Counted from the first letter of the stretch, positions 16,230 through 31,721 are shown. The stretch: 32,000 nt of DNA from Variovorax sp. PBS-H4 (GCF_901827205.1 NZ_LR594675.1:3173915-3205914); one strand, 5' to 3'. A program made the numbers and translations. The notes: generated from the sequence alone by a model not told the origin.

Positions 16230-16240
16230 CTGTGACCACC

Positions 16241-17236: not shown

Positions 17237-17257
17237 AGGCAGAGGGACGCAGACAGC

Positions 17258-18412
17258 ATGAAGACGAATGAATCCACCATCGGCATCGTCGGCGCGGGCA
17301 TCGGCGGACTGGCCGCCGCCATTGCCCTTTCGCGTGCGGGCCACGAGGTCGTGGTGTTCGAACAGGCAAGGCAGTTCGCCCGTGTCGGCGCCGACATCAA
17401 CCTCACGCCCAACGCGGTACGTGCACTCGATGGCCTGGGTGCCGGCGAGGCCGCGCGGGTGACCGCGGCGCGGCCGACGCATCGCATCAGCCGCAACTAC
17501 GACACCGGTGAGGAGACCTCGCGCCTGGAAATGGCCGAGACCGCCGAGCAGAAGTACGGTGCGCCTCAGCTCACCATCCACCGCGCCGACCTTCTTGCGG
17601 CGCTCGCGAACATGGTCCCGGCCGAGCGCGTGGCGCTCGGCAAGCGGGCCTCGAACATCGCGGCGGACGAGGAGGGCGTGAGCCTCTCGTTCGAGGACGG
17701 CAGCAGCGCCCGCGTGGGCGCGCTGCTGGGCGCCGACGGCATCCACTCCGCCGTGCGCGGCGCCATGTTCGGCGCCGAGAGCCCGCGCTTCACCGGCATC
17801 GTGGCGTACCGCGCCGTGGTGCCGTCCGACCGCGTTGCCGGCTTGCCGAACCTGGGCGCCTTCACCAAGTGGTGGGGGCCGAATCCGCAAAGCCAGATCG
17901 TTACCTTCCCGCTCAACCGCGGCAAGGACATCTTCATCTTCGCGACCACGCCGCAGGACAGCTGGCAGCTCGAATCCTGGACCGCCCCGGGGAGCGTGGA
18001 CGAGCTGCGCCAGCAGTACACCGCCTACCACCCCGAGGCGCGTGCGCTGCTCGATGCCTGCGACACGGTGCTCAAGACCGCCCTGTACGAGCGCGATCCG
18101 ATGCCGGCCTGGGCCGCGGGCCGCATGGCGCTGCTGGGCGATGCGGCGCATCCGATGCTCCCGTTCATGGCGCAGGGTGCGGGCATGGCCATCGAGGACG
18201 CTGTCGTGCTCGCGCGCCATCTCGACGGCGTGGCAATGCGCGACATCGCCGGCGCGCTGCAGCGCTACGAGCGCGCGCGCATCGAGCGCACGAGCCAGAT
18301 CCAGCTCGGATCGCGCGGAAACAACTGGCTGCGCGAGGGCGGCAATGCGGACTGGGTCTATGGCTACGACGCCTGGACCGTGCCGCTCGCCGACGCTGCC
18401 GCCATTGCCTGA
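17258..18412 (+). CDS. FAD-dependent aromatic monooxygenase (salicylate/3-hydroxybenzoate/6-hydroxynicotinate hydroxylase class A type)
   Basis: 384 aa. It has GxGxxG (IVGAGIGGLAAAIAL...VVFEQ), the DG motif GADGIHSAVR, and GDAAHPMLPFMAQGAGMAIEDAVVLA. Confidence 0.9.
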   Translation: MKTNESTIGIVGAGIGGLAAAIALSRAGHEVVVFEQARQFARVGADINLTPNAVRALDGLGAGEAARVTAARPTHRISRNYDTGEETSRLEMAETAEQKYGAPQLTIHRADLLAALANMVPAERVALGKRASNIAADEEGVSLSFEDGSSARVGALLGADGIHSAVRGAMFGAESPRFTGIVAYRAVVPSDRVAGLPNLGAFTKWWGPNPQSQIVTFPLNRGKDIFIFATTPQDSWQLESWTAPGSVDELRQQYTAYHPEARALLDACDTVLKTALYERDPMPAWAAGRMALLGDAAHPMLPFMAQGAGMAIEDAVVLARHLDGVAMRDIAGALQRYERARIERTSQIQLGSRGNNWLREGGNADWVYGYDAWTVPLADAAAIA

Positions 18413-18438
18413 ACTCATCTCTTCCCACGGAGGCCACG

Positions 18439-18660
18439 ATGCAACAAGACCGCTACCTGCAACCCCACCAGGCGCGCCAGCGCCCGGCAACCACCTACGA
18501 AGACCTGCTGGGCGATGCCATCGAGCGCGCCTTCGGCGACGGCGTGCACGACCTCGCCGGGCTGGTCGAACGGCTCAACGACAGCGGCCTGGCCACGCCC
18601 GGCGGCCAGCGCTGGACCGAGGACCTGTACGCCCGGGAAATGGCGAAGCTCGGCGCCTGA
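18439..18660 (+). CDS. 73-aa hypothetical protein with recombinase-domain-like helix-turn-helix motif
   Basis: The ATG at 18439 follows an ACGGAGG SD. The ORF fits exactly between the monooxygenase (26-nt gap) and Rieske (12-nt gap) genes, and its GC3 is high. The segment LVERLNDSGLATPGGQRWTEDLYAREMAKL resembles the LNxxGxxTxxGxxWT helix of serine-recombinase 'recombinase' domains. Confidence 0.6.
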   Translation: MQQDRYLQPHQARQRPATTYEDLLGDAIERAFGDGVHDLAGLVERLNDSGLATPGGQRWTEDLYAREMAKLGA

Positions 18661-18672
18661 GGAGAACATCAC

Positions 18673-19710
18673 ATGAACACGATCGCCATCCAACCCGTTG
18701 CGCAAGACCCGGTGGACCGACTGCTCGAGATCGGCCTGAAGAATCTCTGGTACCCGATCTGCCCCTCGCATTTCATTCGCGAGAACCCCGTCTCGCTGCG
18801 CCGGCTGGGCCGCAAGCTGGCCCTCTGGCGCGACGGCGAAGGCAAGTTGCATGCACTGGAAGACCGCTGCCCGCATCGCGGCGCGCCGCTGTCGCAGGGC
18901 GTGATCCTGGGCGACCGGCTGTCGTGCCCCTACCACGGCGTTGAAGTGCGCCATGACGGCGTGGTGACGCGCGTGCCAGGCAGCCCCGGCTGCAAGCTCG
19001 AGGGCTCGCAGGCCACGCGCCACTTCCACGTGGAAGAGCGCGCAGGCGCGGTGTTCCTCTACAACGCCAAGGAGTCGGTGGACGTCCCGCCGCCGCTGGT
19101 GCTGCCCGAGCAGCTCTCGGACGACGCGCAGTACGCGTCCTTCCTCTGCTACACCGAGTGGAAGGGCGACTATCGCTACGTGCTGGACAACGTGATGGAC
19201 CCGATGCACGGCACCTTCCTGCACAAGCAGTCGCACTCGATGGCCGAGGGCGAGTCGCAGGCGAAGTTCGGCATCCGCGCGACCGACCACGGCTTCGTGT
19301 TCGAGAAGGAAGGCCAGCGCAACGTGAACTTCGACTGGACGGAATGGGCCGACACCGGCATGCACTGGATGCGCCTGGAGATCCCGTACCCGCGCACCGG
19401 GGGGCCGGGCGGCAACTTCATCATCATCGGCGCCTTCTCGCCCATGCCCAACGGCATGACCGCGACCTTCTTCTGGCGCGTGCGCAAGCTGGCGCCCGGA
19501 TGGGAACGCGATACCTGGCGCTTTCTCTACAAGAACCGGCTGGAGGCGCGCCACTGGCACGTGCTGGAGCAGGACCGCGTGATGCTGGAGGACATGGAGC
19601 CGGACGCCAATCAGCACGAGAACCTGTACCAGCACGACCTCGGCATCGTGCGCCTGCGCCGCCACATGCGCAACCTGGCCCAGGCGCAGCTCGAGCAGGC
19701 CGCAGCCTGA
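18673..19710 (+). CDS. Rieske [2Fe-2S] non-haem-iron oxygenase, alpha-only phthalate/VanA-type family
   Basis: 345 aa with a GAGGAG SD. The Rieske motif is CPHRG-x-CPYHG (CxH-x16-CxxH). The mononuclear iron motif is DNVMDPMHGTFLH (DxxHxxxxH). There is no beta-subunit gene, and a PDR-type reductase is encoded next. Confidence 0.9.
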   Translation: MNTIAIQPVAQDPVDRLLEIGLKNLWYPICPSHFIRENPVSLRRLGRKLALWRDGEGKLHALEDRCPHRGAPLSQGVILGDRLSCPYHGVEVRHDGVVTRVPGSPGCKLEGSQATRHFHVEERAGAVFLYNAKESVDVPPPLVLPEQLSDDAQYASFLCYTEWKGDYRYVLDNVMDPMHGTFLHKQSHSMAEGESQAKFGIRATDHGFVFEKEGQRNVNFDWTEWADTGMHWMRLEIPYPRTGGPGGNFIIIGAFSPMPNGMTATFFWRVRKLAPGWERDTWRFLYKNRLEARHWHVLEQDRVMLEDMEPDANQHENLYQHDLGIVRLRRHMRNLAQAQLEQAAA

Positions 19711-19743
19711 GGTTGCCAACGCTATTTCCAGAGGTCCACGCCC

Positions 19744-20715
19744 ATGTCTTCTCCCACGCTCAATGCGCTCGTGCACACCATGCGCTACGAGGCCGAGGGC
19801 ATCGTCAGCGTCGAATTCCGGCCGGCTTCGCCCGACGTGGAGTTCCCCGCCTTCGAAGCCGGTTCGCACATCGACCTGCACCTGCCCAACGGCCTGGTGC
19901 GCAGCTACTCGCTGTGCAACCCGGCCAGCGACCGGCAGCGCTACGTGGTCGGCGTGGCCAACGACCGCAAGAGCCGCGGCGGCTCGCGCTACGTGCACCA
20001 GCAGCTGCGCGTGGGCATGACGCTGCCGATCTCGGCCCCGCGCAACAACTTCCACCTGGAGGAGGGCGCCCAGCACTCGGTGCTGGTGGCCGGCGGCATC
20101 GGCGTCACGCCCATCTGGTGCATGCTGCAGCGCCTCGTCGCCATCGGCAAGCCGGTGGAAATGATCTATTGCGCGCGCACGCGGAAGGAAGCCGCCTTCT
20201 GCGACGGCATCGACGCACTGGCGCGCGAGAACAAGGTCGCGCTGACCTGGCATTTCGATGCCGACAAGGGCGCACCGCCGGATCTCGCGACGCTCCTGGC
20301 CGGCAAGAGCGCGGACAGCCACTTCTACTGCTGTGGTCCGGCGCCGATGCTCGATGCCTTCGAGAAGACTTGCGAGCAGCTGGGCTACGCGCATTCGCAC
20401 ATCGAGCGCTTCTCGGCCGCGCATGTCGAGGCGCCCAGCGCGACCGAGACCTACGTCGTCGAATGCGCGAAGAGCGGCAAGAGCGTCGAGGTGCCCCCGG
20501 GCAAGTCGATCCTCGACAGCCTGATCGATGCCGGCCTCAACCCTGACCACAGCTGCAAGGAGGGCGTGTGCGGCGCTTGCGAGACGAAGATCATCTCGGC
20601 GGGCGAGATCGAGCACCGCGACGGCATTCTCACCAAGGCCGAACAGGCGGCGAACAAGACCATGTTCATCTGCGTCTCGCAATGCAAGCGCGGGCCCTTG
20701 GTGCTGGACATCTGA
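19744..20715 (+). CDS. PDR/VanB-family oxidoreductase (FMN/NAD-binding reductase with C-terminal plant-type [2Fe-2S] ferredoxin)
   Basis: 323 aa. It has the RSYSL flavin motif, the GGIGVTP NAD(H) motif, and the C-terminal cluster motif CKEGVCGACETKI...FICVSQC. Confidence 0.9.
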   Translation: MSSPTLNALVHTMRYEAEGIVSVEFRPASPDVEFPAFEAGSHIDLHLPNGLVRSYSLCNPASDRQRYVVGVANDRKSRGGSRYVHQQLRVGMTLPISAPRNNFHLEEGAQHSVLVAGGIGVTPIWCMLQRLVAIGKPVEMIYCARTRKEAAFCDGIDALARENKVALTWHFDADKGAPPDLATLLAGKSADSHFYCCGPAPMLDAFEKTCEQLGYAHSHIERFSAAHVEAPSATETYVVECAKSGKSVEVPPGKSILDSLIDAGLNPDHSCKEGVCGACETKIISAGEIEHRDGILTKAEQAANKTMFICVSQCKRGPLVLDI

Positions 20716-20742
20716 TTTCCCAACTCCCTTTCTAGAACTCCA

Positions 20743-21849
20743 ATGAAGAAATCCCTTGTGGCCGCGGCCGCATGCGTGGCTGCGGCCGGCGCCTGCGCGC
20801 AATCCTCTTCCGTGCAGGTCTTCGGCATCGTCGATGCTGCCGTCACCTACACCACGGGCTCGGGCTATGGCTCATCCGGCAAATGGCAGCTGACCAACAG
20901 CGGCAACAGCTTCAGCCGGCTTGGCTTTCGGGGCACTGAAGACCTTGGCGGTGGCCTCGCTGCCAGCTTCTGGCTGGAAGCCGGCTTGCAGAACGACAAC
21001 GGCACAGGCTTCAACTCCAACCCCAACAACCAAGCCAGCGGTGCCGCCGGCCCCGGCCTGCTGACTTTCAACCGGCGCTCGACCGTGAGCTTTTCCGGCG
21101 GCTTCGGCGAACTGCGCCTGGGCCGCGACTACACGCCGACTTTCTGGAACACGGCGCTGTACGACCCCTTCGGAACCGGCGGTGGCATCGGCGCCAACCA
21201 GCTCTACTTCTCGGGCCTGGGCGGCCTCACCGCGCCGACCGGCACGCGCGCCTCCAACAGCATCGGCTACTTCCTGCCGCCGAACCTGGGCGGCTTCTAC
21301 GGGCAGGCGATGGTCGCGATGGGCGAGAACGACAACCGCTCGGTGCTGCCGGACACGCTGATCTCCAATCGCCACGACGGCGACTACGCCGGGATTCGGG
21401 TCGGCTACCTGAACGGACCGTTCAACGTGACACTCGCCACCGGCCGGACGCGCTACGCGACGGGCAACCTGCGCGTGTCGAACATCGGTGCTTCCTACGT
21501 CTTCGAGTCGCTGATGAGCCTCAAGCTGATGGGCGAGATCTACAGCGAATCGCTGGGCGCAGTGGACGGGAAGGGCGCGCTGCTGGGCTTCAGCCTGCCG
21601 GTGGGCGTTGGCGAGATCAAGGGTTCGTACGCACGCTACAAGCGCGAGCCGCTGGGCAATGTGCCGGAGCCCACGACCTCGAAGCTCGCGCTGGGCTATG
21701 TCTACAACCTGTCGAAGCGCACGGCGCTGTACGGCACCCTGGCCTACCTGCGCAACCGCAATGGGGCGACGCAGTCGCTCGCCGGTTCGACCACCGCGCC
21801 CAACCGAGCCTCCAGGGGGACGGAGTTCGGCATTCGCCACGCGTTCTGA
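20743..21849 (+). CDS. Outer-membrane porin (Gram-negative general porin, beta-proteobacterial type)
   Basis: 368 aa. The signal peptide ends AGACAQ and the N-terminal strand is SSVQVFGIVDAAVTY. Gly/Tyr/Asn-rich amphipathic beta strands alternate through the sequence. The C-terminus is RGTEFGIRHAF, ending in Phe. Confidence 0.9.
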   Translation: MKKSLVAAAACVAAAGACAQSSSVQVFGIVDAAVTYTTGSGYGSSGKWQLTNSGNSFSRLGFRGTEDLGGGLAASFWLEAGLQNDNGTGFNSNPNNQASGAAGPGLLTFNRRSTVSFSGGFGELRLGRDYTPTFWNTALYDPFGTGGGIGANQLYFSGLGGLTAPTGTRASNSIGYFLPPNLGGFYGQAMVAMGENDNRSVLPDTLISNRHDGDYAGIRVGYLNGPFNVTLATGRTRYATGNLRVSNIGASYVFESLMSLKLMGEIYSESLGAVDGKGALLGFSLPVGVGEIKGSYARYKREPLGNVPEPTTSKLALGYVYNLSKRTALYGTLAYLRNRNGATQSLAGSTTAPNRASRGTEFGIRHAF

Positions 21850-22350: not shown

Positions 22351-23241
22351 CTATCTGCCCTTGCGCGACGCCGTAGACAGGAATGCGGGGATCGTCGGGT
22401 TCTGGTTCTGCGAGTCGTAGGCCAGCGCCACGGGGTAGCGCAGCCTGGCGCGGTTGTGGGTGATCGACATGTACTTCACGCGTGGTATCGCGACACCTTG
22501 CATCGATGCCGGTACCAGTGCAATGCCGACGCCCGCGCTGACGAGCGAGAGCACCGTCAGCATCTGGGGCGCGCTTTGCTCCACATGTGGCAGGAAGCCA
22601 CTGTTGCGGCATGCGGTGACCACGAAGGTCTCGAAGGCCGGGCCCTCGCGCGAACGAAAGCTCACGAAGCCTTCGTGCGACAGCGTCTTCAGCTCGACGC
22701 TCTTCTGCCCCGCGAGCGGATGCGATGCGGGCACGGCCAGCGCCAGGTCTTCGTCCGCGAGCGCGAGCAGCTTGAGGCTGCCGGAACCCGGCAAGGGGGG
22801 CACGACGATGGCGATGTCGATCGAATGGCGCAACAGATCCCGGCTTTGCTGTGAGCTGGCTTCGGCATTGAGCATGATCTTGACGTCGGGATAGTTCTGC
22901 CTGAAGCGCGAGAGCAGCTCAGGCACCAGCTGATAGGCCGCGCTCGGAAAGAACGACAGCCGCAAGGTGCCCAGCATGCCCGCCGCTGCGTGCCGCACCA
23001 GCTCGCGCGACTGCGCGGCCTGCGCGAGCAGCCGTCGCGCTTCGACGAGCAGTGCCGAGCCGGCCGGCGTGAGTGCCACACCCTGCCGGTCTCGCAGGAA
23101 CAACGCGACACCGAGATCTTCCTCGAGCCGCTGAATCGCGATGCTCAGCGGCGGTTGCGACATGTGCAGGCGCTCCGCCGCCCGGCGAAAGTTGAGTTCT
23201 TCCGCGACGGCGATGAACTGCCGCATGCTTCGTAAGTCCAT
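22351..23241 (-). CDS. LysR-family transcriptional regulator
   Basis: 297 aa from the ATG at 23241, with a GGAGAT SD. The N-terminal HTH reads MDLRSMRQFIAVAEELNFRRAAERLHMSQPPLSIAIQRLEEDLGVALFLR. A LysR substrate-binding domain follows. The gene is divergent from the TauD-family gene. Confidence 0.9.
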   Translation of the reverse strand: MDLRSMRQFIAVAEELNFRRAAERLHMSQPPLSIAIQRLEEDLGVALFLRDRQGVALTPAGSALLVEARRLLAQAAQSRELVRHAAAGMLGTLRLSFFPSAAYQLVPELLSRFRQNYPDVKIMLNAEASSQQSRDLLRHSIDIAIVVPPLPGSGSLKLLALADEDLALAVPASHPLAGQKSVELKTLSHEGFVSFRSREGPAFETFVVTACRNSGFLPHVEQSAPQMLTVLSLVSAGVGIALVPASMQGVAIPRVKYMSITHNRARLRYPVALAYDSQNQNPTIPAFLSTASRKGR

Positions 23242-23265
23242 GGGGGATCTCCGGCCGGTCAGCTG

Positions 23266-23280
23266 ATTCGACAATCGAAT
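23266..23280. promoter_or_regulatory. LysR-type T-N11-A palindrome in the divergent intergenic region
   Basis: ATTCG-ACAAT-CGAAT is a perfect 5-bp dyad fitting T-N11-A. It lies 24 nt upstream of the LysR start codon and 77 nt upstream of the TauD-family ATG. Confidence 0.35.
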
Positions 23281-23357
23281 CATGAACCATCCAAATCAGT
23301 ATTGGCTGGATCGGACAAGGCTGCCTACGATTCATTTCAAACAACCCTCGCGACACG

Positions 23358-24206
23358 ATGAACAGCCAGCAGACCCCACTGGAAATCCGCCCCTGCACCC
23401 CGACAATCGGGGCCGAAGTCTCAGGCTTCGACCTCGACCATGTGAGCGACGCCACTGCAGCGCGGTTGCGCGACGCACTGGTTCGCCATGAAGTGCTCTT
23501 CCTGCGCGACCAGAAGCTGACGCCCGCGCAGCACGTGTGCCTCGCCGAGGTCTTCGGCCAGACCCTCGCCGCCAAGTCGATCGTCTTTCCGTCGCCCGAG
23601 GGGTTCCCGGCGATCGAGGTCGTCGAGTACGGCGGCGGGCGCGTGCCGCAGACTGACATCTGGCACACCGACATCATCTGGCAGCAGCGGCCCGCGCTGG
23701 GCGCCGTGCTGTGCGCCGAGGTGTTGCCGGAGACGGGCGGCGACACGCTGTGGGCCAGCATGACTGCGGCGTACGAAGCGCTGTCGCCGCGGATGCAGGC
23801 CTATCTCGAAGGCCTCACGGGCGTGAACACCTGGGAAATCTCGTCACAGAAAAAGGACGCGCTGGCACAGCGCGGCTACGACGGGCTGCTCGCGCTGATG
23901 CAGAAGTACCCGCCGGTCGAGCATCCGATCGTGCGCACGCATCCGGTCTCGGGCAGGAAGATCCTCTACTGCACGCGTTCTTTCACCTCGGAGATCAAGG
24001 AACTGCCCGAAGACGAGGGCCGCGCCGTGCTGGAGTTTCTCTTCGAGCATGTGAAGCGGCCCGAATTCCATGTGCGCTTCCAGTGGCGCGCGGGCTCCGT
24101 CGCGATCTGGGACAACCGCTCGACCCAGCACTACGCCGTCAACGACTACATGCCGAACCGTCGCCGCATGCATCGCGTGGCGGTGGCGGGCGATGTTCCG
24201 TTCTGA
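23358..24206 (+). CDS. TauD/TfdA-family Fe(II)/2-oxoglutarate-dependent dioxygenase
   Basis: 282 aa. It has IGAEVSGFDL, the facial-triad HxD in IWHTDIIW, GGDTLWASM, the distal His in DNRSTQHYAVNDY, and RRMHRV, which is typical of TauD-like enzymes. Confidence 0.9.
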   Translation: MNSQQTPLEIRPCTPTIGAEVSGFDLDHVSDATAARLRDALVRHEVLFLRDQKLTPAQHVCLAEVFGQTLAAKSIVFPSPEGFPAIEVVEYGGGRVPQTDIWHTDIIWQQRPALGAVLCAEVLPETGGDTLWASMTAAYEALSPRMQAYLEGLTGVNTWEISSQKKDALAQRGYDGLLALMQKYPPVEHPIVRTHPVSGRKILYCTRSFTSEIKELPEDEGRAVLEFLFEHVKRPEFHVRFQWRAGSVAIWDNRSTQHYAVNDYMPNRRRMHRVAVAGDVPF

Positions 24207-24242
24207 CCACTTCTCGAGACCCACGATCGAAGCGTACGCACC

Positions 24243-25217
24243 ATGTTCGACAAGTCATTCATCGCCGGGCTCCTGGCCGGCGTCCTTCTCTTGCCGTTCG
24301 GCGCCGGCCTGGCACGCGCCGAGACGCCGACGCGCATCCTGGTCGGCTTCCCGCCGGGCGGCACCACCGACGGCGTTGCCCGTCTTTACAGCGAGGGTTT
24401 GTCGAAGGCGCTGGGCCGTACCGTGCTGGTCGAGAACAAGCCCGGCGCCGGCGGCGCGATCGCGGCGGCGGCGCTCAAGGCCGCGCCGCATGATGCGAGC
24501 ACGCTCATGCTGGCCGCGATCGTGAACATCAGCGTCTATCCGAGCACGGCCAATCCGCCGGCCTACGACCCCTTCAAGGACTTCGTCGCCGTATCGATGG
24601 TCGGACGCTACGACCTGGCGCTGGCCGTCAGCGCGGCGAGCGGCATCGAGACGGTCCCGGCGTACGTCGCCTGGGCCAAGGCCCGCCACGACAAGGCGAA
24701 CTTCGGCTCCCCCGGCAACGGCAGCCTGCCGCATCTCTTCGGTGCTCAGTTTTCACAAGCCGCGGGCCTGGACCTGGTTCACGTGCCTTTCCAGGGCGCG
24801 ACGCCATCGATCGTGAATCTGCTCGGCGGCCAGATCGGCGCCGTGATCCAGCCGGTGAGCGACCTGGTCGCGCAGCATGACGCCGGCAAGGTCCGCATCC
24901 TGGCGACCACCGGTTCGCAGCGCAACGCACGGCTGCCCGGCGTGCCGACCTTCAAGGAGCTCGGCTATCCCGGCATGGAAGGCGGCGGCTGGATCGGCTT
25001 CTTTGCGCCGGCCGGTACGCCCGAAAAGGCGACGCAGGCGATCTGGGAGGCCGTGCAATCCATCCAGGCGACGCCTGCCGTGGTCTCGCGCATGCAGGCT
25101 CTTGGCTTCGACGTGACGCCCATGACCCGTGCCGAGTTCGCCGAGCTGACCCGCAAGGATGCGGCGCGCTGGGGCGATGTCGTGCGCAGCGGCAACATCC
25201 TGGTCAAGACACCATGA
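24243..25217 (+). CDS. Bug-family (TctC-like) substrate-binding protein
   Basis: 324 aa. It has a signal peptide (…LLLPFGAGLARAE) and Bug motifs (ILVGFPPGGTTD, NKPGAGG, NFGSPGNGSLPH, VPFQGATPSIVNLLGGQI). Confidence 0.9.
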   Translation: MFDKSFIAGLLAGVLLLPFGAGLARAETPTRILVGFPPGGTTDGVARLYSEGLSKALGRTVLVENKPGAGGAIAAAALKAAPHDASTLMLAAIVNISVYPSTANPPAYDPFKDFVAVSMVGRYDLALAVSAASGIETVPAYVAWAKARHDKANFGSPGNGSLPHLFGAQFSQAAGLDLVHVPFQGATPSIVNLLGGQIGAVIQPVSDLVAQHDAGKVRILATTGSQRNARLPGVPTFKELGYPGMEGGGWIGFFAPAGTPEKATQAIWEAVQSIQATPAVVSRMQALGFDVTPMTRAEFAELTRKDAARWGDVVRSGNILVKTP

Positions 25218-26707
25218 CCAGCACCGCTGCCACCACCGTAATCACCCTGCATTCGGCGGCCGAATATGCCGGCCTGCTTCGTGCCGTGCCCGAGGGCTCG
25301 ATCTACGTTGACGGGCGCTATGTCGGCGCGCATGACCGGCATCGTGTATTCGCAAAAGCAGACGGTGCATTCATCGCGGAGATCGGATATGCGTCAACCG
25401 GCGATGTGAATGCAGCAGTGGAAGCCGCCGATGCGGCGTTCCCGGCCTGGGCCGCGCGCGCTCCCTCCGACAGGTCGACCATGCTGTCGCGCCTGGCCGA
25501 CGCGCTGGAGAGGCGTTCGCATGAATTCGCCATGCTGGAGGCGCACCATGCCGGCAAGCTCATCACGGATGCCGAGCTCGAGATCCGCTCGGGCGTGCAG
25601 ACTTTGCGATGGTTCGCGAGCTGCGCCCTGCACATCGATGGACGCATGCCCGCGGGAACGCCTGCGCAGCTGCGCTACGTGCGGCGCGAGCCGCTGGGCG
25701 TCTGCAGCCTGATCCTGCCATGGAACTTCCCGTTGCTGCTCATGCTGTGGAAGCTTGGCCCCGCCTTGGCGGCCGGCAACACCGTCGTCGCCAAGCCGGC
25801 GAGCGAAACGCCGCTGACGGCGCTGGCGTTCGGGCTCCTGTGCGACGAGGCCGGCTTGCCGCACGGCGTCTACAACGTGGTGCCGGGCAGCGGACGCGAG
25901 GCCGGCATGGCGCTGGCGACACACGACAGGATTGCGAAGGTGTCCTTCACCGGCTCGACCTCGGTCGGCCTTCAGGTTGCGGCCGCAGCGGCGCGGACCG
26001 TCAAGCGCGTCACGCTCGAACTGGGCGGCAAGTCGCCGAACATCGTGTGCGACGACGCCGATCTGGACCGTGCCGCGGCCGGCATCGCCGGCATCTTCGG
26101 GCATGCCGGGCAAAAGTGCGCCGCGCGCACGCGCTGTTTCGTGCAGGAATCGGTGGCCGACCGGCTGGTTGAAAAGGTCGCCGCACGCGCGAGCGCGCTG
26201 CGCATCGGCGACCCGCTCGATCGAGCTGCCACGCTCGGTCCGGTCATCAACAGCGAGGCACAGGAAACGATCCTCGGCTACTGCCGCTCGGCTACGGAAG
26301 AGGGCGCGCGGCTGGTCTGCGGCGGCAAGGCGCCCGTCGGACGGCGCGGGCCCTACGTCGAGCCCACGGTCTTCGACCATGCACGCAACGACATGACCTT
26401 TGCGCGCGAAGAAATCTTCGGGCCGGTGCTGGCCGTGATTCGCATCAAGGACATCGACGAGGCGATCCTCCTCGCAAACGATTCCGTCTTCGGCCTCGCG
26501 GCTTCAGTGTGGACCGGTTCGTTGTCGAAGGCGCACACCATCGCGGCAAGGCTCGAAGCGGGCAGTGTCTCGGTCAACACGCCCGCGGTGATCGGCATTG
26601 AAACGCCGTTCGGCGGCTACAAGCAGAGCGGGCTCGGGCGCGAACTGGGCGTCGAGGGGCTGGATGCGTATCTGCAGCACAAGAGCGTGATCGTGGACCT
26701 CGGCTGA
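25214..26707 (+). CDS. NAD(P)-dependent aldehyde dehydrogenase
   Basis: 497 aa. The ATG overlaps the Bug stop as ATGA. It has ILPWNFP, FTGSTSVG, LELGGKSPNIV (catalytic Glu), GQKCAARTR (catalytic Cys) and EEIFGPV. Confidence 0.9.
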   Translation: MTSTAATTVITLHSAAEYAGLLRAVPEGSIYVDGRYVGAHDRHRVFAKADGAFIAEIGYASTGDVNAAVEAADAAFPAWAARAPSDRSTMLSRLADALERRSHEFAMLEAHHAGKLITDAELEIRSGVQTLRWFASCALHIDGRMPAGTPAQLRYVRREPLGVCSLILPWNFPLLLMLWKLGPALAAGNTVVAKPASETPLTALAFGLLCDEAGLPHGVYNVVPGSGREAGMALATHDRIAKVSFTGSTSVGLQVAAAAARTVKRVTLELGGKSPNIVCDDADLDRAAAGIAGIFGHAGQKCAARTRCFVQESVADRLVEKVAARASALRIGDPLDRAATLGPVINSEAQETILGYCRSATEEGARLVCGGKAPVGRRGPYVEPTVFDHARNDMTFAREEIFGPVLAVIRIKDIDEAILLANDSVFGLAASVWTGSLSKAHTIAARLEAGSVSVNTPAVIGIETPFGGYKQSGLGRELGVEGLDAYLQHKSVIVDLG

Positions 26708-26775: not shown

Positions 26776-29499
26776 TCAGGCCACGAACTTGCAGAGCGAC
26801 GCGACGGTGCGCGTGTCCATGTTGCGGCCGCGGTTGAGGTGGTCGTCGATCTCGGCGGCACAGCCCAGCATGCGCGGGTAGAGGAAGATCGTGAACGCGG
26901 CCGTTTCGAGCTCGCGCTCGCCAATCTCCCCGGACTGCAGCGGCTTCCACAGCATCTTGAGCAGCAGCGCGGCGATCACCGCGTCCACGTTCACGCAATA
27001 GACGTTGCGCGACACGCCGGCATCGAAGAGCTGCCGCACCAGCGCACGGTAGAAATCGTGGAACACGTTGTGGTCGCCGCGCGCCTCGCGCAGCCTTGCG
27101 ATGAAGACCTCGCGCGGATCAAGATTGACCGGCTTGTCCTTGAAGACCGGGTGGTTCACGCCCGGCAACTTGGCGATGTCCAGGCTGCCCGCGCTCTTCT
27201 TCCGGGTCTTGTACTGCGCGTATCGGTCCACCGCCTTTGCGGCGAGGGCCTGGAGATCCACGCCGTGGTTCGGGGCGCCCGGGTCGTCGAGGCCGGTGCC
27301 CTTGAACTGCTCGATCAGGTAGGCGATCCCCTCGTAGCCATTGCCGCCGTGGGCATAGCCGGTGTGCGTGAGGAAACCGATCAGCGCCTTGTTGAGCTGC
27401 ACTCGCTCAGGCTGCTCGGGCCCGTCCGCCGACACCGCGCCCTTGGCGCCCTGGGCCGAAATCGCGCCGGGGCCGTTGGTCAGCAACAGGCCGACCAGGG
27501 TCTGGAAGGCGAACAGGTCGGCCTCGGCCGGCGTGCGGCCGAGGAGGGCGGCGAAGGCGACCTCGCCGAGGCTCGCGCTCTCCAGCAACTGCTGCTGCGC
27601 GATGCCGCAGAAGCGGCCTTCCTCATGCCGCGCGGCATCCGCCGAGGCGCCGATCAGCGTGCCGAAGAGCTGCAGCCACCAGGGGAAGTTCTGCGCCGTC
27701 AGCAGCGAGATGCGTTTGCGGGACAGCGGCCCCCAGGCCAGCGTGGCCGAGATCGCGGCCAGCACGGCCGCCTCGGTCGGGTGGCCGGCGAGGCTTTGCA
27801 GCCAGCGCAGGAACACCGAGCGCCCGCCGCGTGCCTGCACGCCGGCCAGCAGGGCCTGGGCACGGCCGTCGGGCGTGTCGCCGGTGAGCGTTGGCGCTCC
27901 GGTCATGTCGATCTGCCCGATATCGAAGCTGTCGCTGAGCGAGGCGCCGAATTCGTTGCCTAGCGCGGCGGCATGGAAGCGTTCGAGCATGAAGCCCAAC
28001 GCCTCGCGGGCCGCCTGCTGCCGCTTCGGCCCGACGATGGCGGCTGCTGCTGCCAGCACCGAGTTGGGCGCATTGCCGGCTTCGCGGCTGGCTTGCGCGG
28101 CCGCGAGTTCAGGGCGGCCGTGCAGGTTGACGTAGGCAGCGATCGCGGGCGCGATGAGTCGCCGGTCGTTGTCCCCGCCGGCATCGTGCAGCAGGGCGAG
28201 TGCCACGTTGGATTCCAGCGGGAGGGTGGCTGCGTCCAGCATGCTGGTGCCGTGCAGGCTGCTGACCTGCGTCTTCGCGTCCATCTGCGAGGCGCCCGAG
28301 GCGTCCTTCATCGCCTGGCGCGGCACCACGCCGCCGATCTGCGTGTTGAGCAGCGCCACCTGCTCGTCGTAGGGTGCGAGCGCCTGTACCACGGGCAGGC
28401 GCAGTTCCTGCGGAAGGTCGAGGCCCTCGTCGGAGCCGAACCACGGCTTGAGCGCCAGCGTGCCTTCGGGCGCGAAGTCCGGCAGGGTCGCGTTCGCGCG
28501 CATCACCGCGGTGAGCGCGGCCGGGATATGGGCGATGTTGGTGACCAGCGCACCCTTGGCTGAGAACACGGGGTTGTCGGGCGTGAAGATCGCGTCGACC
28601 CCGAACTTGTCCATGAACCAGCGTTCCTTGGCCAGCGCATCGTCCGAGCCGCCGGCCATTGCGCCGGCATGACCGACCGCCCGCGTGAGCTTGCTTTTCC
28701 AGCGCCCGACCACGCACGCGACCACCGGCTTGGTGAACTTCGCATCGAGCTCGTAGTAGCCGCCTGGTTCGCAGTAGAGCACCGCCGCCTTGCTGCGTGC
28801 ATCGTTGGCCAGCGCAAAGGCGAATTCGGGCGCGGCGTAGTGGATGTAGACGTCCTTGCCCGACGAGATCACCGTGGTCGTGCCCCAGCCCGCCATGCGC
28901 AGATACTGGGCAATGGTGGTGGAGAAGCCGCCCGAGTTGGAGAAGATCGCGATCGAGCCCGGCCGCAGCGAGTCGCCGGGCTTGTCGCCGCCCAGCGCAC
29001 CGCCGACGCGGACCTGGTTCCACGAGTCGGCCACGCCCAGGCCATTGGCGCCGAAGATGTCGATGCCGTTCTGCTGGCCCATGGCGCGGATCTCGCGTGC
29101 ATCGTGCACCGCGATCTTCTCGGTGATGATGAAGATCTTGCGCAGCTCCGGGTTCACGCGGATCAATTCGGCCACGCCGTCGCGCGCGGCCGATGGCGGC
29201 AGGTACACCACGCCGCAGTTGAAGCGGTGGCCCGCCGCCAGCCCGTCGCGCACGTTGTTGAAGACGGGAATCTCGCCGATGGGCGTCTCGAGCACCGCGC
29301 CGCCCTTGCCGGGCGCGGTGCCGAAGACGACGTTGCCGCCCGAGTAGGCATGGCTCACCGGCGTGACCTCGCTCGACTCGCCGCCCAGGATGTTGAGCAC
29401 GCAGACGCGGTCTTCGCGCGAGGCGACCTGCGTGAGCGAGCTGATGCCGACGTGGTACTTGAAGTCGCCCACGCCTGTCTTCTGCCAGCTGGATTGCAT
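26776..29499 (-). CDS. ATP-citrate-lyase alpha-subunit-like protein, expanded (SucD-like CoA-binding/phosphohistidine half plus two citrate-synthase/citryl-CoA-lyase-like modules)
   Basis: 907 aa from the ATG at 29499, with a GGAAGGAAG SD 17 nt after the upstream gene's stop. The N-half is SucD-like: GTAPGKGG, IITEKIAVHD, IFSNSGGFS, VGHAGAM (His277, nt 28669-28671). The C-terminal module carries YAHGG (His717), GVNHPVF (His783), DPR and VNVD (Asp839), and parallels the ACLY/AclA C-terminal domain. The 220-codon upstream extension in the ORF track overlaps the beta-like gene and is rejected. Confidence 0.85.
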   Translation of the reverse strand: MQSSWQKTGVGDFKYHVGISSLTQVASREDRVCVLNILGGESSEVTPVSHAYSGGNVVFGTAPGKGGAVLETPIGEIPVFNNVRDGLAAGHRFNCGVVYLPPSAARDGVAELIRVNPELRKIFIITEKIAVHDAREIRAMGQQNGIDIFGANGLGVADSWNQVRVGGALGGDKPGDSLRPGSIAIFSNSGGFSTTIAQYLRMAGWGTTTVISSGKDVYIHYAAPEFAFALANDARSKAAVLYCEPGGYYELDAKFTKPVVACVVGRWKSKLTRAVGHAGAMAGGSDDALAKERWFMDKFGVDAIFTPDNPVFSAKGALVTNIAHIPAALTAVMRANATLPDFAPEGTLALKPWFGSDEGLDLPQELRLPVVQALAPYDEQVALLNTQIGGVVPRQAMKDASGASQMDAKTQVSSLHGTSMLDAATLPLESNVALALLHDAGGDNDRRLIAPAIAAYVNLHGRPELAAAQASREAGNAPNSVLAAAAAIVGPKRQQAAREALGFMLERFHAAALGNEFGASLSDSFDIGQIDMTGAPTLTGDTPDGRAQALLAGVQARGGRSVFLRWLQSLAGHPTEAAVLAAISATLAWGPLSRKRISLLTAQNFPWWLQLFGTLIGASADAARHEEGRFCGIAQQQLLESASLGEVAFAALLGRTPAEADLFAFQTLVGLLLTNGPGAISAQGAKGAVSADGPEQPERVQLNKALIGFLTHTGYAHGGNGYEGIAYLIEQFKGTGLDDPGAPNHGVDLQALAAKAVDRYAQYKTRKKSAGSLDIAKLPGVNHPVFKDKPVNLDPREVFIARLREARGDHNVFHDFYRALVRQLFDAGVSRNVYCVNVDAVIAALLLKMLWKPLQSGEIGERELETAAFTIFLYPRMLGCAAEIDDHLNRGRNMDTRTVASLCKFVA

Positions 29500-29516
29500 G
29501 ATGTCTTCCTTCCCTT

Positions 29517-30803
29517 TCAAGCGGCCGCTGCGGCCTGGATGCCAAGGCGCGCCGCGACCTGCTCGCGGCCGCCGTCCTTCATCCACGCGTTGACCTTGCG
29601 GGCGAACTGGATCACCTCGCTCATGTCGGAGTCGAAGCCGAAGAGGCGGTAGGGCAGGCCCAGGGCATCGCAGGTGTCGCGCAGCGCGCCCATGCCGCGC
29701 ACCAGGTTCGGCCCGCCACGGCCCACCACCACGTAGAGAGGCGTTGGTCCATGCTGGCTGAAGTGCTCGCGCAGCGCGTCGGCCATCGCGCGCAGGGTCT
29801 CGAAGATGTCGGTGTTGTTGCTCTTGCCGCCGATGATGAAGAGCACGTTGGCCTGCTTGAGCCAGTGCCTGAAGCAGATGCGCGCCACCTCCTTCATCTT
29901 CTCGTAGGGCGGGTTGCCGCCGAAGTCGGAACTGATGATCGCGTCGTCGCCCAGCATCTCGGTCACCAGCGAGTTGGCGCCACCGCCGAAGGTAGGGGCG
30001 AGCACCGTGCCGTTCTCGTTGATCACGTACACGTCGCTCTGCCCCTGGTGCGTGCGCAGGGTGTTGATCTCTTGCTCGAAGTCCGAGTAGTCGGCCGCGA
30101 ACAGATGGGGCGGCAGACCCAGGCGCAGCCAGCGCGGGTCGTCGCGGTCGAAGCCGCACTTGAAGTCGCAGGCGACCGGCGTGAGCCGGCCCTTCTTGTC
30201 CTCGCGCATGCGGATCGGGTTGAGCTCCAGCGTGGTCATCCCGAAGTCATGGAACAGTTCCCACAGCTTGGGCAACTGCTGGACCAGCGGCGAGATGATC
30301 TCCTTCGGCGCGCCGATCTCGGTGAGCGCGTTCGCCACCACGAAGGCCTTCAGGCCGGTCAGGGGGTCGAAGGGCACCGTCGCGACCTGGGTCTTGTCCA
30401 GCTCCTCGATGTCCATGCCGCCCATGTGCGTGAGCGTCATGGTCGGCGCGCGGAAGCGGGTGGAGTCGCTGATGGAAAAGTAGACCTCGTGCTTGGCCGG
30501 CACGCCGGCCTCGAAGGTCACGCCGTTTGCCTTGGCCTTGACATGGCCGACCGTGTGCTCGGCGAAGTAGAGGCGTTCCTTTTCGGCGAGTGCGGTCTTC
30601 AGGTCGGTGGCCCGGCCCAGCAGGCCGGCCTTGCCCTTCTTGCCGATGCCGCCCTTGAAAACGGGCTTGACGAAGATGAGCCCGTACTTGTCGATCAGCG
30701 CCTTGATTTCCTCTTCGCTGGCCGCGGGGCCCAGCACCTCGGTGGCCGGAAAGCCCGCGAATTGCAGCAGGCGTGCGCCGTGCAACATGCCGGTGATCTG
30801 CAT
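29517..30803 (-). CDS. ATP-citrate-lyase beta-subunit-like protein (ATP-grasp, SucC-related)
   Basis: 428 aa with an AGGAGA SD. It has an ATP-grasp N-half (IFVKPVFKGGIGKKGKAGLL). Its C-half has the ACL-type pattern FGGGANSLVTE, FIIGGKSNNTDIFETL, VVVGRGGPNLVRGM and GLPYRLFG. These parallel the ACLY segments IIGGSIANFTNV, VRRGGPNYQEGL and GIPIHVFG. Confidence 0.85.
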   Translation of the reverse strand: MQITGMLHGARLLQFAGFPATEVLGPAASEEEIKALIDKYGLIFVKPVFKGGIGKKGKAGLLGRATDLKTALAEKERLYFAEHTVGHVKAKANGVTFEAGVPAKHEVYFSISDSTRFRAPTMTLTHMGGMDIEELDKTQVATVPFDPLTGLKAFVVANALTEIGAPKEIISPLVQQLPKLWELFHDFGMTTLELNPIRMREDKKGRLTPVACDFKCGFDRDDPRWLRLGLPPHLFAADYSDFEQEINTLRTHQGQSDVYVINENGTVLAPTFGGGANSLVTEMLGDDAIISSDFGGNPPYEKMKEVARICFRHWLKQANVLFIIGGKSNNTDIFETLRAMADALREHFSQHGPTPLYVVVGRGGPNLVRGMGALRDTCDALGLPYRLFGFDSDMSEVIQFARKVNAWMKDGGREQVAARLGIQAAAAA

Positions 30804-30953: not shown

Positions 30954-31721
30954 CTAGTTCTTGTAGGTCGAGTCGATCCGGTCGAGCCTGCGGATCAACG
31001 CAGGCCAGACGAAGGCCCCGCCCAAGCCACCGGTCTGCACCTTCAGCGCCTGCCCCACGCCTTCGATGATGCGCGGATCGACATGGGTGAGTTCGCCGCC
31101 GCCTGCCTGTGCGGCGATCTGGATCTGGCAGGTGTTTTCGAAGGTGTACATCGACAGGAACGCGTCGGCGATGGTCTTGCCCACGGTCAGCAAGCCATGG
31201 TTGCGCAGCATCAGGAAGTTGGCTTCGCCCATGTCGGCCTGCAGCCGCGGCTTCTCGTCGTCGCGGAAGGCCACGCCCTCGTAGTCGTGGTAGGCCAGCG
31301 AGGCCAGCACGAAGGTGGATTGCTGGCTGATCGGCAGCACGCCGTCTTTTTGCGCGCTGACGGCGATGCCCGCACGCGTGTGGGTGTGCAGCACGCACTG
31401 GATGTCCGGCCGGGCCGCATGGATGGCGCTATGAATGACGAAGCCCGCGGGATTGACGGGGTAGGGCGAGGTGATCACCTTGCTGCAGTCCTGGTCCACC
31501 TTGACCAGGCTCGAGGCGGTGATCTCGTCGAACATCAGCCCGTAGGGATTGATCAGGAAATGGTGATCGGGCCCCGGCACGCGCGCACTGATGTGGGTGA
31601 AGACGAGGTCGCTCCAGCCGTGGAGGGCGACGAGCCGGTAGCAGGCCGCGAGGTCCACGCGCAATTGCCATTCCTCGGCGGAGACGAGCTTCTGGATTTC
31701 GGAATGCGTGGTGGTGTTCAT
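30954..31721 (-). CDS. Class II aldolase/adducin-family protein
   Basis: 255 aa. It has FTHISARVPG, the metal-binding cluster AIHAARPDIQCVLHTHT, and RNHGLLTVG, all typical of the class II (FucA/AraD/adducin-head) fold. It lies 150 nt upstream of the ACL-like pair on the same strand. Confidence 0.9.
   Translation of the reverse strand: MNTTTHSEIQKLVSAEEWQLRVDLAACYRLVALHGWSDLVFTHISARVPGPDHHFLINPYGLMFDEITASSLVKVDQDCSKVITSPYPVNPAGFVIHSAIHAARPDIQCVLHTHTRAGIAVSAQKDGVLPISQQSTFVLASLAYHDYEGVAFRDDEKPRLQADMGEANFLMLRNHGLLTVGKTIADAFLSMYTFENTCQIQIAAQAGGGELTHVDPRIIEGVGQALKVQTGGLGGAFVWPALIRRLDRIDSTYKN

Follow-up and report, generated by a model that had tools for sequence, protein, structure and literature searches.

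ATP-citrate lyase (ACL), citryl-CoA synthetase with citryl-CoA lyase (CCS/CCL) and citrate synthase make up the textbook case of a central metabolic enzyme assembled by fusion, and the solved ACLs all have, to our knowledge, a CCL tetramer as their structural core. In the canonical enzymes (Chlorobium limicola AclAB, Methanothrix ACL and human ACLY) this core of CCL/citrate synthase homology is a D2 tetramer (PMC11365397). A short-form fused AclA of ~690 aa has been described as a ccsB-ccl fusion (PMC5459899), and a 'type II' ACL was postulated by Hugler & Sievert 2011; papers citing that work (PMC3522073, PMC6783814, PMC6315080) give as examples Mmc1_3638/3639 of Magnetococcus marinus, the Riftia/Tevnia and other tubeworm symbionts, and Thioflavicoccus. 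No characterised enzyme of the family to which the large subunit described below belongs was found in the searchable literature.

The window analysed here, 32,000 nucleotides of Variovorax sp. PBS-H4 (NZ_LR594675.1:3173915-3205914), carries a gene pair (30803..26776, minus strand) whose product is probably a two-subunit enzyme of the CCS/CCL lineage resembling ATP-citrate lyase, with an internally duplicated, dead and probably structural CCL module in its alpha subunit. The features are as follows.

29517..30803, minus strand: beta (small) subunit gene, 428 aa, ATP-grasp and ACL-type citrate-binding domain (Pfam)
26776..29499, minus strand: alpha (large) subunit gene, 907 aa and stop (ORF and start codon)
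28570..29442, minus strand: CoA-binding and phosphohistidine domains of alpha, aa 20-310 (Pfam, PDB sequence search, Foldseek)
28660..28674, minus strand: GHAGA loop, aa 276-280, with the putative phosphohistidine H277 (translation checked)
28291..28569, minus strand: linker/leader, aa 311-403 (alignment of long and short forms)
27610..28290, minus strand: copy 1, dead CCL-like module, aa 404-630 (hhalign, AF2, Foldseek)
28018..28035, minus strand: VGPKRQ, aa 489-494, degenerate counterpart of the YAHGGN catalytic-His motif (column counts, hhalign)
26779..27609, minus strand: copy 2, intact CCL/citrate-synthase-homology module, aa 631-907 (NCBIfam, hhalign, invariance)
27343..27357, minus strand: YAHGG, aa 715-719 (H717, G718 and G719 invariant, 75/75)
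27142..27156, minus strand: NHPVF, aa 782-786, followed by the DPR motif D794-R796 (H783, P784, F786, D794 and R796 invariant)
26983..26994, minus strand: VNVD, aa 836-839 (C835, V836, N837 and D839 invariant)
26803..26817, minus strand: C-terminal tail DTRTV, aa 895-899 (D895, R897 and T898 invariant)

The alpha reading frame starts with an ATG at 29499 (MQSSWQK), 17 nt past the beta stop, and runs to 26776, and homologues of the same 907 aa in Variovorax, Cupriavidus and Polaromonas are 82-96% identical to it. Its order is thus a CcsB/SucD-like domain (aa 20-310), the linker (311-403), the dead CCL copy (404-630) and the intact one (631-907); the correspondence of aa 395-630 with nt 27610-28317 and of aa 631-907 with nt 26779-27609, as given in a preliminary description of this DNA, agrees with the translation. 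An AlphaFold model of the full-length chain has a pLDDT of 86.3, and an Rfam scan of the whole window gave no match. Over aa 20-310 both Pfam CoA_binding and Succ_CoA_lig score above cutoff, and the nearest relative is the citryl-CoA synthetase small subunit CcsB (6hxq_A, E=2.4e-33 by PDB sequence search; TMt 0.80 by Foldseek). G276, H277, A278, G279 and A280 are invariant in 75 sequences, and H277 may, by analogy with what is known of SCS and ACLY, be the phosphohistidine. The linker holds the conserved motifs PDF..G.L.LKPWF and R..M+..SGAS, is also present in single-module relatives according to the alignment of long and short forms, and is modelled at lower pLDDT (54-83). Beta scores above cutoff for Pfam ATP-grasp_2 (48.3 bits against 29.5, E=1.2e-12) and for Citrate_bind PF16114 (56.3 bits against 26.8, E=3.9e-15), and in 78 of the 83 loci fetched, the three of Geobacter type included, its gene stands immediately upstream of alpha.

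Copy 2 is the intact module. Its match to the NCBIfam citryl-CoA lyase model NF004869 is weak (E=3.2e-4; 20 bits, where the curated cutoff is 212) and PF00285 is precomputed for many homologues; more than 50 of its residues are invariant across 75 sequences. The YAHGG, NHPV and VNVD motifs had been read as retained in this copy, and rightly so, with H717, H783 and D839 each invariant in 75/75; we take these to be the counterparts of citrate synthase His274, His320 and Asp375 respectively. Also invariant are R796, R876, H887 and R897. In citrate synthase Arg421 acts in trans, completing the active site of the other subunit, and R897 is its likely counterpart, with a putative corresponding role; aa 896-900 fall below pLDDT 50 in the monomer model. 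In the enzyme as proposed, beta (ATP-grasp and citrate-binding) and the first third of alpha, with its CoA-binding domain and H277, would make citryl-CoA, and the C-terminal CCL module, through H717, H783 and D839, would split it into acetyl-CoA and oxaloacetate, with citrate as the probable substrate on domain homology only.

A tandem CCL repeat matching segment by segment had been proposed by eye, and it stands well above chance. BLASTP of aa 330-630 against 631-907 gives a single HSP (117 aa, 23% identity, E=3e-4), and hhalign of aa 405-630 against 631-907, with family profiles from alignment A1 of 75 sequences, gives a probability of 98.0% and E=2.7e-13 over 200 aligned columns at 17% identity. 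The match is collinear, aa 421-625 onto aa 636-887, with head (aa 405-500, E=5.4e-5) and tail (aa 540-630, E=7.2e-12) each found separately, and the head and tail pairings are those that had been picked out by eye. In none of fourteen control comparisons (2 reversed profiles, 10 column-permuted ones, and the two modules each set against the profile of the SucD-like N-terminal part) did E fall below 0.2, and no alignment there exceeded 37 columns. Two details of the earlier account shift. The first module is present but begins at a beta-hairpin at about aa 404-414 rather than at aa 395, and the duplication does add residues, but ~225 of them and not ~300, the remainder being the longer linker (aa 311-403).

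Sequence models alone are blind to the homology of copy 1, since no meaningful match was obtained with aa 330-630 against Pfam and NCBIfam, with 24 copy-1 sequences against Pfam, or with a copy-1 HMM against all PDB sequences. The homology rests instead on the within-family profile comparison and on predicted structure. Modelled alone as aa 400-632 by template-free AF2, copy 1 is predicted to be a beta-hairpin and about 10-11 helices (pLDDT 84.1, pTM 0.84), and the top 38 PDB matches of this model in Foldseek are all CCL or ACL/ACLY core modules (probability 0.99-1.00, 230-249 aligned columns), citrate synthases and methylcitrate synthases coming after them. The best is 6hxp, Hydrogenobacter CCL (E=6.6e-4, probability 1.00, TM 0.57/0.52, 246 columns); the TM-scores of copy 1 against solved CCL modules are moderate, at 0.48-0.57 with an rmsd of 7-9 A. 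In the full-length model the helices of the two modules pair approximately one for one. The full-length model was uninformative as a Foldseek query for copy 1, its SucD-like domain dominating the results. The citrate-synthase-like helical fold foreseen for copy 1 is thus the one predicted here, with the pTM of 0.84 and the CCL/ACL matches behind it, and neither a different fold nor an unsupported repeat was encountered: the repeat is significant and the predicted fold is CCL-like.

As to catalysis, copy 1 has at the positions equivalent to H717, H783 and D839 the VGPKRQ motif, a variable loop and an Ala, and in VGPKRQ the G490 is invariant with no His among 75 sequences. In those 75 no His, Asp or Arg is conserved at its aligned catalytic or substrate positions, nor does aa 404-630 as a whole contain any conserved Arg, His, Lys or Asp; only P478, N479 and G490 are invariant, with G417, L421, W589 and I597 nearly so, and none of these is charged. 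The counterparts of R796, R876, H887 and R897 are all lost, and the loop equivalent to the NHPVF region is shortened (pLDDT 63-77). The catalytic degeneracy claimed for copy 1 is therefore borne out at the level of residues, 0/3 catalytic positions being kept and none conserved family-wide, and copy 1 is, as read from its residues, a homologue of the CCL/citrate-synthase fold and not an active member of it. Still it is maintained and not decaying: across 60 Burkholderiales pairs copy 1 has a dN/dS of 0.149, compared with 0.101 in copy 2 and 0.046 in the SucD-like part, and copy 1 is under purifying selection.

A module without catalytic residues, having kept its fold and being under purifying selection, points to a pseudo-enzyme domain of structural role. 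Catalytic and substrate-binding residues are all gone from this older-looking CCL copy, as are the loop region of NHPVF and the Arg tail at the C terminus; the helical fold is kept. Having probably arisen by internal duplication of the module, copy 1 would most likely be part of the helical core where CCL modules oligomerise, positioning the synthetase half against the lyase half. The structural role is argued mainly from the absence of conserved polar or charged residues, which suggests it, and the packing of the CCL modules in alpha is likewise put forward conditionally. In the alternative that fares best, which we regard as possible but doubtful, copies 1 and 2 of a single chain would pack on each other as citrate-synthase/CCL protomers do, an intramolecular pseudo-dimer, as suggested in the preliminary description, giving one live and one dead site per alpha and a lower oligomeric state, alpha4beta4 going to alpha2beta2 for instance, or perhaps an altered substrate pocket. 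Essentially no linker separates the modules, the tail helix of copy 1 ending at ~aa 618-625 and copy 2 opening with its first hairpin at aa 624-633; a second module in cis would be a natural partner given that the CCL modules of all solved ACLY structures form a D2 core (PMC11365397), and purifying selection without a conserved polar residue is what a packing partner would show. However the copy 2 tail (D895, R897, T898) is invariant, disordered though it is in the monomer model, and this speaks mildly against such packing: a dead partner would give no reason for the invariance of R897, and copy 1, having no Arg tail of its own, would be unable to complete the copy 2 site. With R897 invariant at the position of the trans-acting Arg421, we infer that the catalytic modules, if anything, still pair across chains.

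A regulatory role has also to be weighed, copy 1 then being a ligand-binding domain whose allosteric site (for CoA, acetyl-CoA, citrate or a nucleotide, say) survives from the old active-site cleft. Ligand binding is often preserved in pseudo-enzyme domains, P478-N479 and G490 are invariant around the former catalytic-His loop, and copy 1 is conserved across phyla; but with no Arg, His, Lys or Asp conserved in aa 404-630, the citrate- and CoA-binding counterparts of R796, R876, H887 and R897 gone, and the loop of the NHPVF region both shortened and of low confidence, this reading is improbable, and the structural one is kept.

The preliminary description had proposed a survey of homologues. 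Among the homologues examined here the ~900-aa form spans several phyla, and the ~690-aa sister family is single-module. Copy 1 is found in every homologue of ~901-916 aa from Geobacter, Desulfobacter, Desulfosarcina, Spirochaetia, KSB1, Melioribacteraceae and Burkholderiales; the ~690-aa short forms, with one CCL module, come from Spirochaetes, Planctomycetes/Phycisphaerae, Desulfomonilia and Fibrobacteria. The short-form module is matched end to end by copy 1 (hhalign E=2.8e-12, 215 columns, 19% identity) and by copy 2 at E=1.5e-71. In the joint alignment the short-form leader and first helices match the start of copy 1 and the rest matches copy 2, with a gap of ~225 residues, a pattern that is the signature of an internal duplication. 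That the CCL module is tandemly duplicated in alpha, with a catalytically degenerate first copy, is supported, three independent lines agreeing: the significant profile-profile repeat, the predicted fold of copy 1 and its end-to-end match to the short-form module. Against an in-gene duplication it may be held that ccsB and ccl were fused with a separate CCL-like paralogue, divergent from the outset, between them. Copy 1 lies about as far from copy 2 (E=2.7e-13, 17%) as from the short-form module (E=2.8e-12, 19%), so sequence distance is no pointer to a recent in-gene event. Yet the leader (R..MRN.S.AS and first hairpin) that precedes the short-form module precedes copy 1 in the long forms, where copy 2 opens with the hairpin in the way that tandem internal duplication predicts, and, a weaker point, no free-standing copy-1-only protein occurs among 150 representatives, mostly contig fragments. 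Such a fusion seems unlikely and tandem duplication the more probable, though both would give the same present-day layout. A chance or compositional likeness of Ala/Leu-rich helices in a 68% G+C genome, for which the weak single-sequence signal (23% identity, E=3e-4 in one pairwise comparison) and the failure of any public HMM to recognise aa 404-630 might be cited, is rejected as scarcely credible, the signal persisting with homologues of lower-G+C lineages only 22-25% identical in the copy 1 region, the reversed, column-permuted and unrelated-domain controls reaching only E>=0.2 against 2.7e-13, and an independent structure prediction retrieving only CCL, ACL and citrate-synthase folds.

Genomic surroundings say little of the pathway. 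The pair's neighbours in the window are a class II aldolase, an aldehyde dehydrogenase, TctC, TauD and LysR, and among the window gene neighbours there are no reductive TCA (rTCA) cycle genes (kor, tfr, acn, idh, mdh). A conserved aldolase-ACL pathway was considered and rejected, the class II aldolase being a neighbour only in close Variovorax relatives (7 loci). Across 80 loci of Burkholderiales and Alphaproteobacteria only beta is constant, subsets carrying TcuC-like, DctA or CitS-family transporters, and an rTCA-type neighbourhood is seen only at a distant Geobacter-type homologue, where PEP carboxylase and a TfrAB-like fumarate reductase adjoin. A bolder and frankly tentative proposal, which we think less likely to hold than to fail, is that the dead copy is an obligatory architectural element rebuilding the ACL core and that the heterotroph version is an unrecognised, non-rTCA, ATP-dependent route from citrate or another tricarboxylate to acetyl-CoA. 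If so, two alpha chains would give a pseudo-D2 core of four modules (two live, two dead), or four chains one of eight, with an oligomeric state and a geometry of hand-over from synthetase to lyase unlike any solved ACL, and imported citrate or another tricarboxylate would be turned to acetyl-CoA in hundreds of aerobic heterotrophs (Variovorax, Paraburkholderia, Thauera, Methylobacterium).

What follows from the duplication itself is that a whole, phylum-spanning branch of the ACL family carries a second, dead CCL module invisible to domain databases, which adds a step to ACL history, from fusion to duplication to pseudo-enzyme formation, and predicts a core architecture not yet seen experimentally. 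Present annotation gives the ~900-aa proteins the name 'CoA-binding protein' or 'succinyl-CoA synthetase alpha subunit', and these labels hide a probable citrate-cleaving enzyme in the genomes of at least 500 species, many of them ordinary soil heterotrophs. Carbon-fixation surveys that look for rTCA markers by way of Chlorobium AclA or Hydrogenobacter Ccl may score the class wrongly, and the dead module gives enzyme design a defined target on which deletions and interfaces can be studied.

Among known systems, alpha may be likened to other tandem pairs of an active and a dead catalytic domain in which the inactive duplicate is kept as a structural or regulatory partner, and we know of no such pair for the citrate synthase/CCL fold. 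No description of a duplicated CCL module was found in the searchable literature, which does not prove its absence there. The alpha/beta pair probably belongs to the type II ACL class, being like it a two-gene beta-alpha unit in which alpha joins CcsB-like and CCL parts, with Geobacter-type homologues (about 41-46% identity) beside the TfrAB-like fumarate reductase and PEP carboxylase, a context that agrees with the rTCA cluster described for type II ACL (PMC6315080). The published type II primer peptides AKEEWF and NGFEAIA (primers in PMC3522073) are both found in P0287, a homologue of 916 aa, where they lie 430 aa from each other and so span copy 1; the ~900-aa form probably corresponds to the type II ACL of the literature, an equivalence drawn indirectly, through primer peptides and Geobacter-type neighbours. 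Unlike the type II accounts in those papers, which treat the large subunit simply as a ccsB-ccl fusion and make no mention of a second, dead CCL module, the chain has two modules, and its host is an aerobic heterotroph of Variovorax type with no rTCA neighbours. With the short-form AclA it shares the CcsB-like N-terminal domain, the long linker with its leader motif and the catalytic CCL module, but the short form has a single CCL module and the ~225 extra residues of alpha are copy 1. With canonical ACL it shares the ATP-grasp and citrate-binding domain, the CoA-binding domain with phosphohistidine and the CCL core; the canonical AclA, in contrast, is of ~616 aa (6hxj_B, 6hxi_B) with one CCL module and a short linker, and is detectably similar in sequence to alpha only in the CoA-ligase part (E=4e-11). 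A further relative is the system of Hydrogenobacter thermophilus. Among solved proteins its CcsAB (6hxq) comes nearest to alpha in the N-terminal part, its Ccl (6hxp) gives copy 1 its top structural match, and the two together presumably share their chemistry with the Variovorax enzyme; but where Hydrogenobacter has separate proteins and a single CCL module, the Variovorax alpha fuses the synthetase small subunit with two lyase modules, one of them dead.

The large (alpha) subunit of the ATP-citrate-lyase (ACL)-like enzyme is encoded next to the small (beta) subunit, and the two genes and the long linker within alpha lie as follows.

26776..29499, minus strand: alpha gene, start ATG at 29499 (MQSSWQKTG...), 907 aa
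28291-28569, minus strand: alpha linker, aa 311-403, between the CoA-ligase part and the first citryl-CoA-lyase (CCL) module
29517..30803, minus strand: beta gene, 428 aa, directly upstream of alpha

The alpha start lies 17 nt past the beta stop codon and is preceded by a ribosome-binding stretch, GGAAGGAAG. A 1127-codon ORF (26776..30159, minus strand) was rejected as the alpha gene, 220 of its codons being a spurious upstream extension, read in a different frame across the end of beta. Many long overlapping ORFs are listed on both strands across 26776-30159; such ORFs are typical of DNA with 68% G+C and are no evidence of genes. Beta has an ATP-grasp domain and an ACL-type citrate-binding domain, both over the Pfam cutoffs, and residues 28-307 of alpha are SucD-like by Pfam and NCBIfam, their nearest solved relative being the small subunit of Hydrogenobacter citryl-CoA synthetase (6hxq_A, E=2.4e-33). 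The linker carries well-conserved motifs (PDF..G.L.LKPWF and R..M+..SGAS), is modelled with low pLDDT (54-83) and may serve as a docking arm or swing arm. Beyond it, residues 631-898 match the NCBIfam citryl-CoA lyase weakly (E=3.2e-4), and residues 330-630 have no match in Pfam or NCBIfam.

Those unmatched residues nevertheless include a second CCL module, copy 1 (aa 404-630), directly before the intact copy 2 (aa 631-907). With single sequences BLASTP of residues 330-630 against 631-907 gives one HSP of 117 aa at 23% identity (E=3e-4). For profile comparison, segments 405-630 and 631-907 were cut from a 75-sequence alpha alignment (A1), built from close homologues of 907 aa (82-95% identical; Variovorax, Cupriavidus necator, Polaromonas, Ralstonia, Acidovorax) and diverse ones of 901-916 aa, which share 41-46% identity with the window protein and come from Geobacter, Desulfobacter, Desulfosarcina, Malonomonas, Spirochaetia, KSB1, Melioribacteraceae and Leptospirales. 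The hhalign match between them has 98.0% probability and E=2.7e-13 over 200 aligned columns, is collinear (aa 421-625 against aa 636-887) and persists when the head (E=5.4e-5) or the tail (E=7.2e-12) of copy 1 is used alone; in the controls, for which the two profiles were reversed, columns were permuted ten times and either module was set against the SucD-like profile, E was always >=0.2 and no alignment exceeded 37 columns. At the level of sequence profiles the repeat is thus real. The segment pairs picked out by eye in the preliminary description are exactly those that hhalign pairs, and its mapping of residues to nucleotides (aa 395-630 to 27610-28317, aa 631-907 to 26779-27609) is exact.

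Copy 2 looks catalytically complete, in that H717 (YAHGG), H783 (NHPVF), D839 (VNVD), the DPR arginine R796, R876, H887 and R897 are invariant in 75 of 75 sequences; we take the first three to be citrate synthase His274, His320 and Asp375, and the arginines presumably correspond to those that bind oxaloacetate and citrate in that enzyme. In copy 1 the catalytic-His motif is replaced by VGPKRQ, the loop at the NHPVF position is shortened and of low confidence, the catalytic Asp position holds Ala or variable residues, and the C-terminal Arg tail is missing, so that the degeneracy of the first module noticed earlier holds at the aligned positions. What is conserved in residues 404-630 is of another kind: only P478, N479 and G490 are invariant and G417, L421, W589 and I597 nearly so, none of the seven being charged. 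Selection was gauged from 79 alpha sequences (78 Burkholderiales and alphaproteobacterial loci plus the window) by the Nei-Gojobori method over 60 close pairs, which gave a median dN/dS of 0.046 for the SucD-like part, 0.087 for the linker, 0.101 for copy 2 and 0.149 for copy 1. Judged by these patterns copy 1 is degenerate yet maintained, with no decay.

The predicted fold of copy 1 is that of a CCL module. Template-free AlphaFold2 modelling of whole alpha gave a mean pLDDT of 86.3, with residues 410-510 and 530-630 mostly above 90, and in this model each module opens with a short beta-hairpin and continues with about 10-11 helices, the elements of the two copies pairing approximately one for one. 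A separate model of residues 400-632 (alignment A2; pLDDT 84.1, pTM 0.84) was compared with the PDB by Foldseek, where the top match was Hydrogenobacter citryl-CoA lyase 6hxp (E=6.6e-4, probability 1.00, TM 0.57/0.52 over 246 columns), ranks 2-38 were all CCL-core or holo-ACL/ACLY entries, and citrate and methylcitrate synthases came after these; the TM-scores are moderate and the rmsd values are 7-9 Å. The citrate-synthase-like helical fold on which the duplication proposal was staked is therefore what the model predicts. Sequence methods do not see it: an HMM of copy 1 found no chain among PDB sequences, and no Pfam model recognised any of 24 copy-1 sequences. Because sequence models miss copy 1, annotation pipelines label these proteins merely 'CoA-binding protein'. 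A PDB sequence search found the two-module architecture in no entry.

The origin of the second module is best approached through a sister family of short forms (about 688-700 aa), recovered by exhaustive representative search from Spirochaetes, Desulfomonilia, Chitinivibrionales, Fibrobacteria, Phycisphaerae and Brocadiia, which have the N-terminal domain and long linker of the two-module long form but a single CCL module. Copy 2 is the long-form orthologue of that module (hhalign E=1.5e-71). Copy 1 too can be aligned with it over almost its whole length (E=2.8e-12, 215 columns), AGNAPNSVLAAAAAIVGPKRQ pairing with AGNRPHTAMIATLAGIGTVHGG for instance; phmmer with copy 1 as a single sequence likewise finds the catalytic module of the short forms. 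When both families are aligned jointly, the start of copy 1 lies opposite the leader (R..MRN.S.AS), the hairpin and the first helices of the short form, whose remaining part falls on copy 2, and about 225 long-form residues face a gap; such a pattern is expected from an internal tandem duplication. Fusion of a separate CCL paralogue would be a less probable, though admissible, origin; copy 1 being as far from copy 2 as from the short-form module speaks for it, and the joint-alignment pattern speaks against it. If the duplication occurred within the gene, the same equidistance makes it an old event. Duplication with degeneration, as first proposed, is supported by the hhalign repeat, the model fold and the short-form comparison together. 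The 'roughly 300' extra residues ascribed to it need dividing: lengths run from about 616 aa in canonical AclA (6hxj_B, 6hxi_B) through about 690 in the short form to about 907 in the long form, and the duplication does add length, though just some 225 residues, the other 75-90 or so coming from the longer linker, which both the ~690-aa and ~900-aa families possess and canonical AclA lacks.

How a dead module might serve the enzyme is suggested by all solved ACLY structures, in which the CCL domains form a D2 core with the synthetase halves outside (PMC11365397). Since copy 1 is conserved, has (N479 apart) no conserved polar residue and lies directly before the live module, the simplest reading is that it would be a structural part of the CCL helical core. 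The preliminary description had instead imagined the two modules of one chain pairing as an intramolecular pseudo-dimer, which seems rather unlikely. One feature speaks against a citrate-synthase-type dimer made in cis. The copy 2 tail residues D895, R897 and T898 are invariant and are disordered in the monomer model. In citrate synthase Arg421 completes the active site of the other subunit, and R897 is presumably its equivalent; the invariance of the tail would then be sensible only if live modules pair with live modules, and copy 1 has no tail to donate.

The locus is about 96% identical to that of Variovorax sp. DT-64, and relatives of the pair are encoded in at least 501 species genomes. 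The best 80 of these belong to Variovorax, Paraburkholderia, Caballeronia, Thauera, Rhizobacter, Methylobacterium, Microvirga and Skermanella, all heterotrophs, and the beta-alpha pair turns up widely among aerobic heterotrophs not expected to run the reductive TCA cycle. Beta is directly upstream of alpha in 78 of 83 fetched loci, three Geobacter-type loci included, and no other neighbour is constant across the 83. Near the pair are a TcuC-type tricarballylate/citrate symporter in 25 loci (763 bits), DctA in 17, a CitS-family citrate symporter in nine and a LysR regulator in 19. Carboxylate transporters in subsets of loci hint at the use of imported tri- or dicarboxylates rather than CO2 fixation, and suggest a catabolic or acetyl-CoA-supplying role. 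The surroundings in the window are these.

within 15258-21849, plus strand: glyoxalase/extradiol-dioxygenase-family protein and FAD monooxygenase
within 15258-21849, plus strand: Rieske/VanA-like oxygenase with ferredoxin-NAD reductase partner, and Gram-negative porin
22351-23283, minus strand: LysR regulator, divergent from the next cluster
23358-26707, plus strand: tight cluster of TauD/TfdA-family dioxygenase, TctC (Bug-family) periplasmic receptor and aldehyde dehydrogenase
30954-31721, minus strand: class II aldolase/adducin-family gene, directly upstream of beta
31788-31761, minus strand: promoter-like site before the aldolase gene, the region's only sigma-70-like match

The aldolase gene may be in an operon with the ACL-like genes; it is confined as a neighbour to close Variovorax relatives (seven of the fetched loci). 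The TctC and aldehyde dehydrogenase genes overlap by 4 nt (25214-25217), and their cluster converges on alpha across a gap of 68 nt. Aldolase, aldehyde dehydrogenase, TctC and TauD are not conserved as neighbours past close Variovorax relatives. The plus-strand genes at 15258-21849 form a run resembling aromatic catabolism.

The alpha/beta architecture belongs to the CCS/CCL-to-ACL lineage, in which Planctomycetes and Spirochaetes have a fused ccsB-ccl large subunit that falls between Aquificae CCS/CCL and 'ACL type II' (PMC5459899). Type II ACL has been postulated in Magnetococcus (Mmc1_3638/3639), tubeworm symbionts and Thioflavicoccus, where it clusters with tfrAB, korABCD and other TCA genes (PMC6783814, PMC3522073, PMC6315080). 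A distant Geobacter-type long-form homologue, P0127, has PEP carboxylase on one side and a TfrAB-like fumarate reductase on the other. This locus (L001, 3355-14893) also holds a CBS-domain protein, its TfrAB/CCG-type fumarate reductase comprises three genes, and it is an rTCA-like cluster on a Geobacter-related metagenome contig. Published type II primers encode the peptides VAKEEWF and NGFEAIA (PMC3522073); the 916-aa long-form homologue P0287 has AKEEWF and the full NGFEAIA 430 residues apart, and all full-length carriers of either motif are of the ~900-aa class, the sole exception being one fragment of about 250 aa. The searchable literature yielded no mention of a second CCL module. In the neighbours of P0127, in the presence of both primer peptides in P0287 and in the confinement of these motifs to the ~900-aa class the long form is like type II ACL, and we infer that it belongs to that class, the two-module alpha being a widespread, unannotated and, as far as searched, undescribed architectural variant of a known enzyme.
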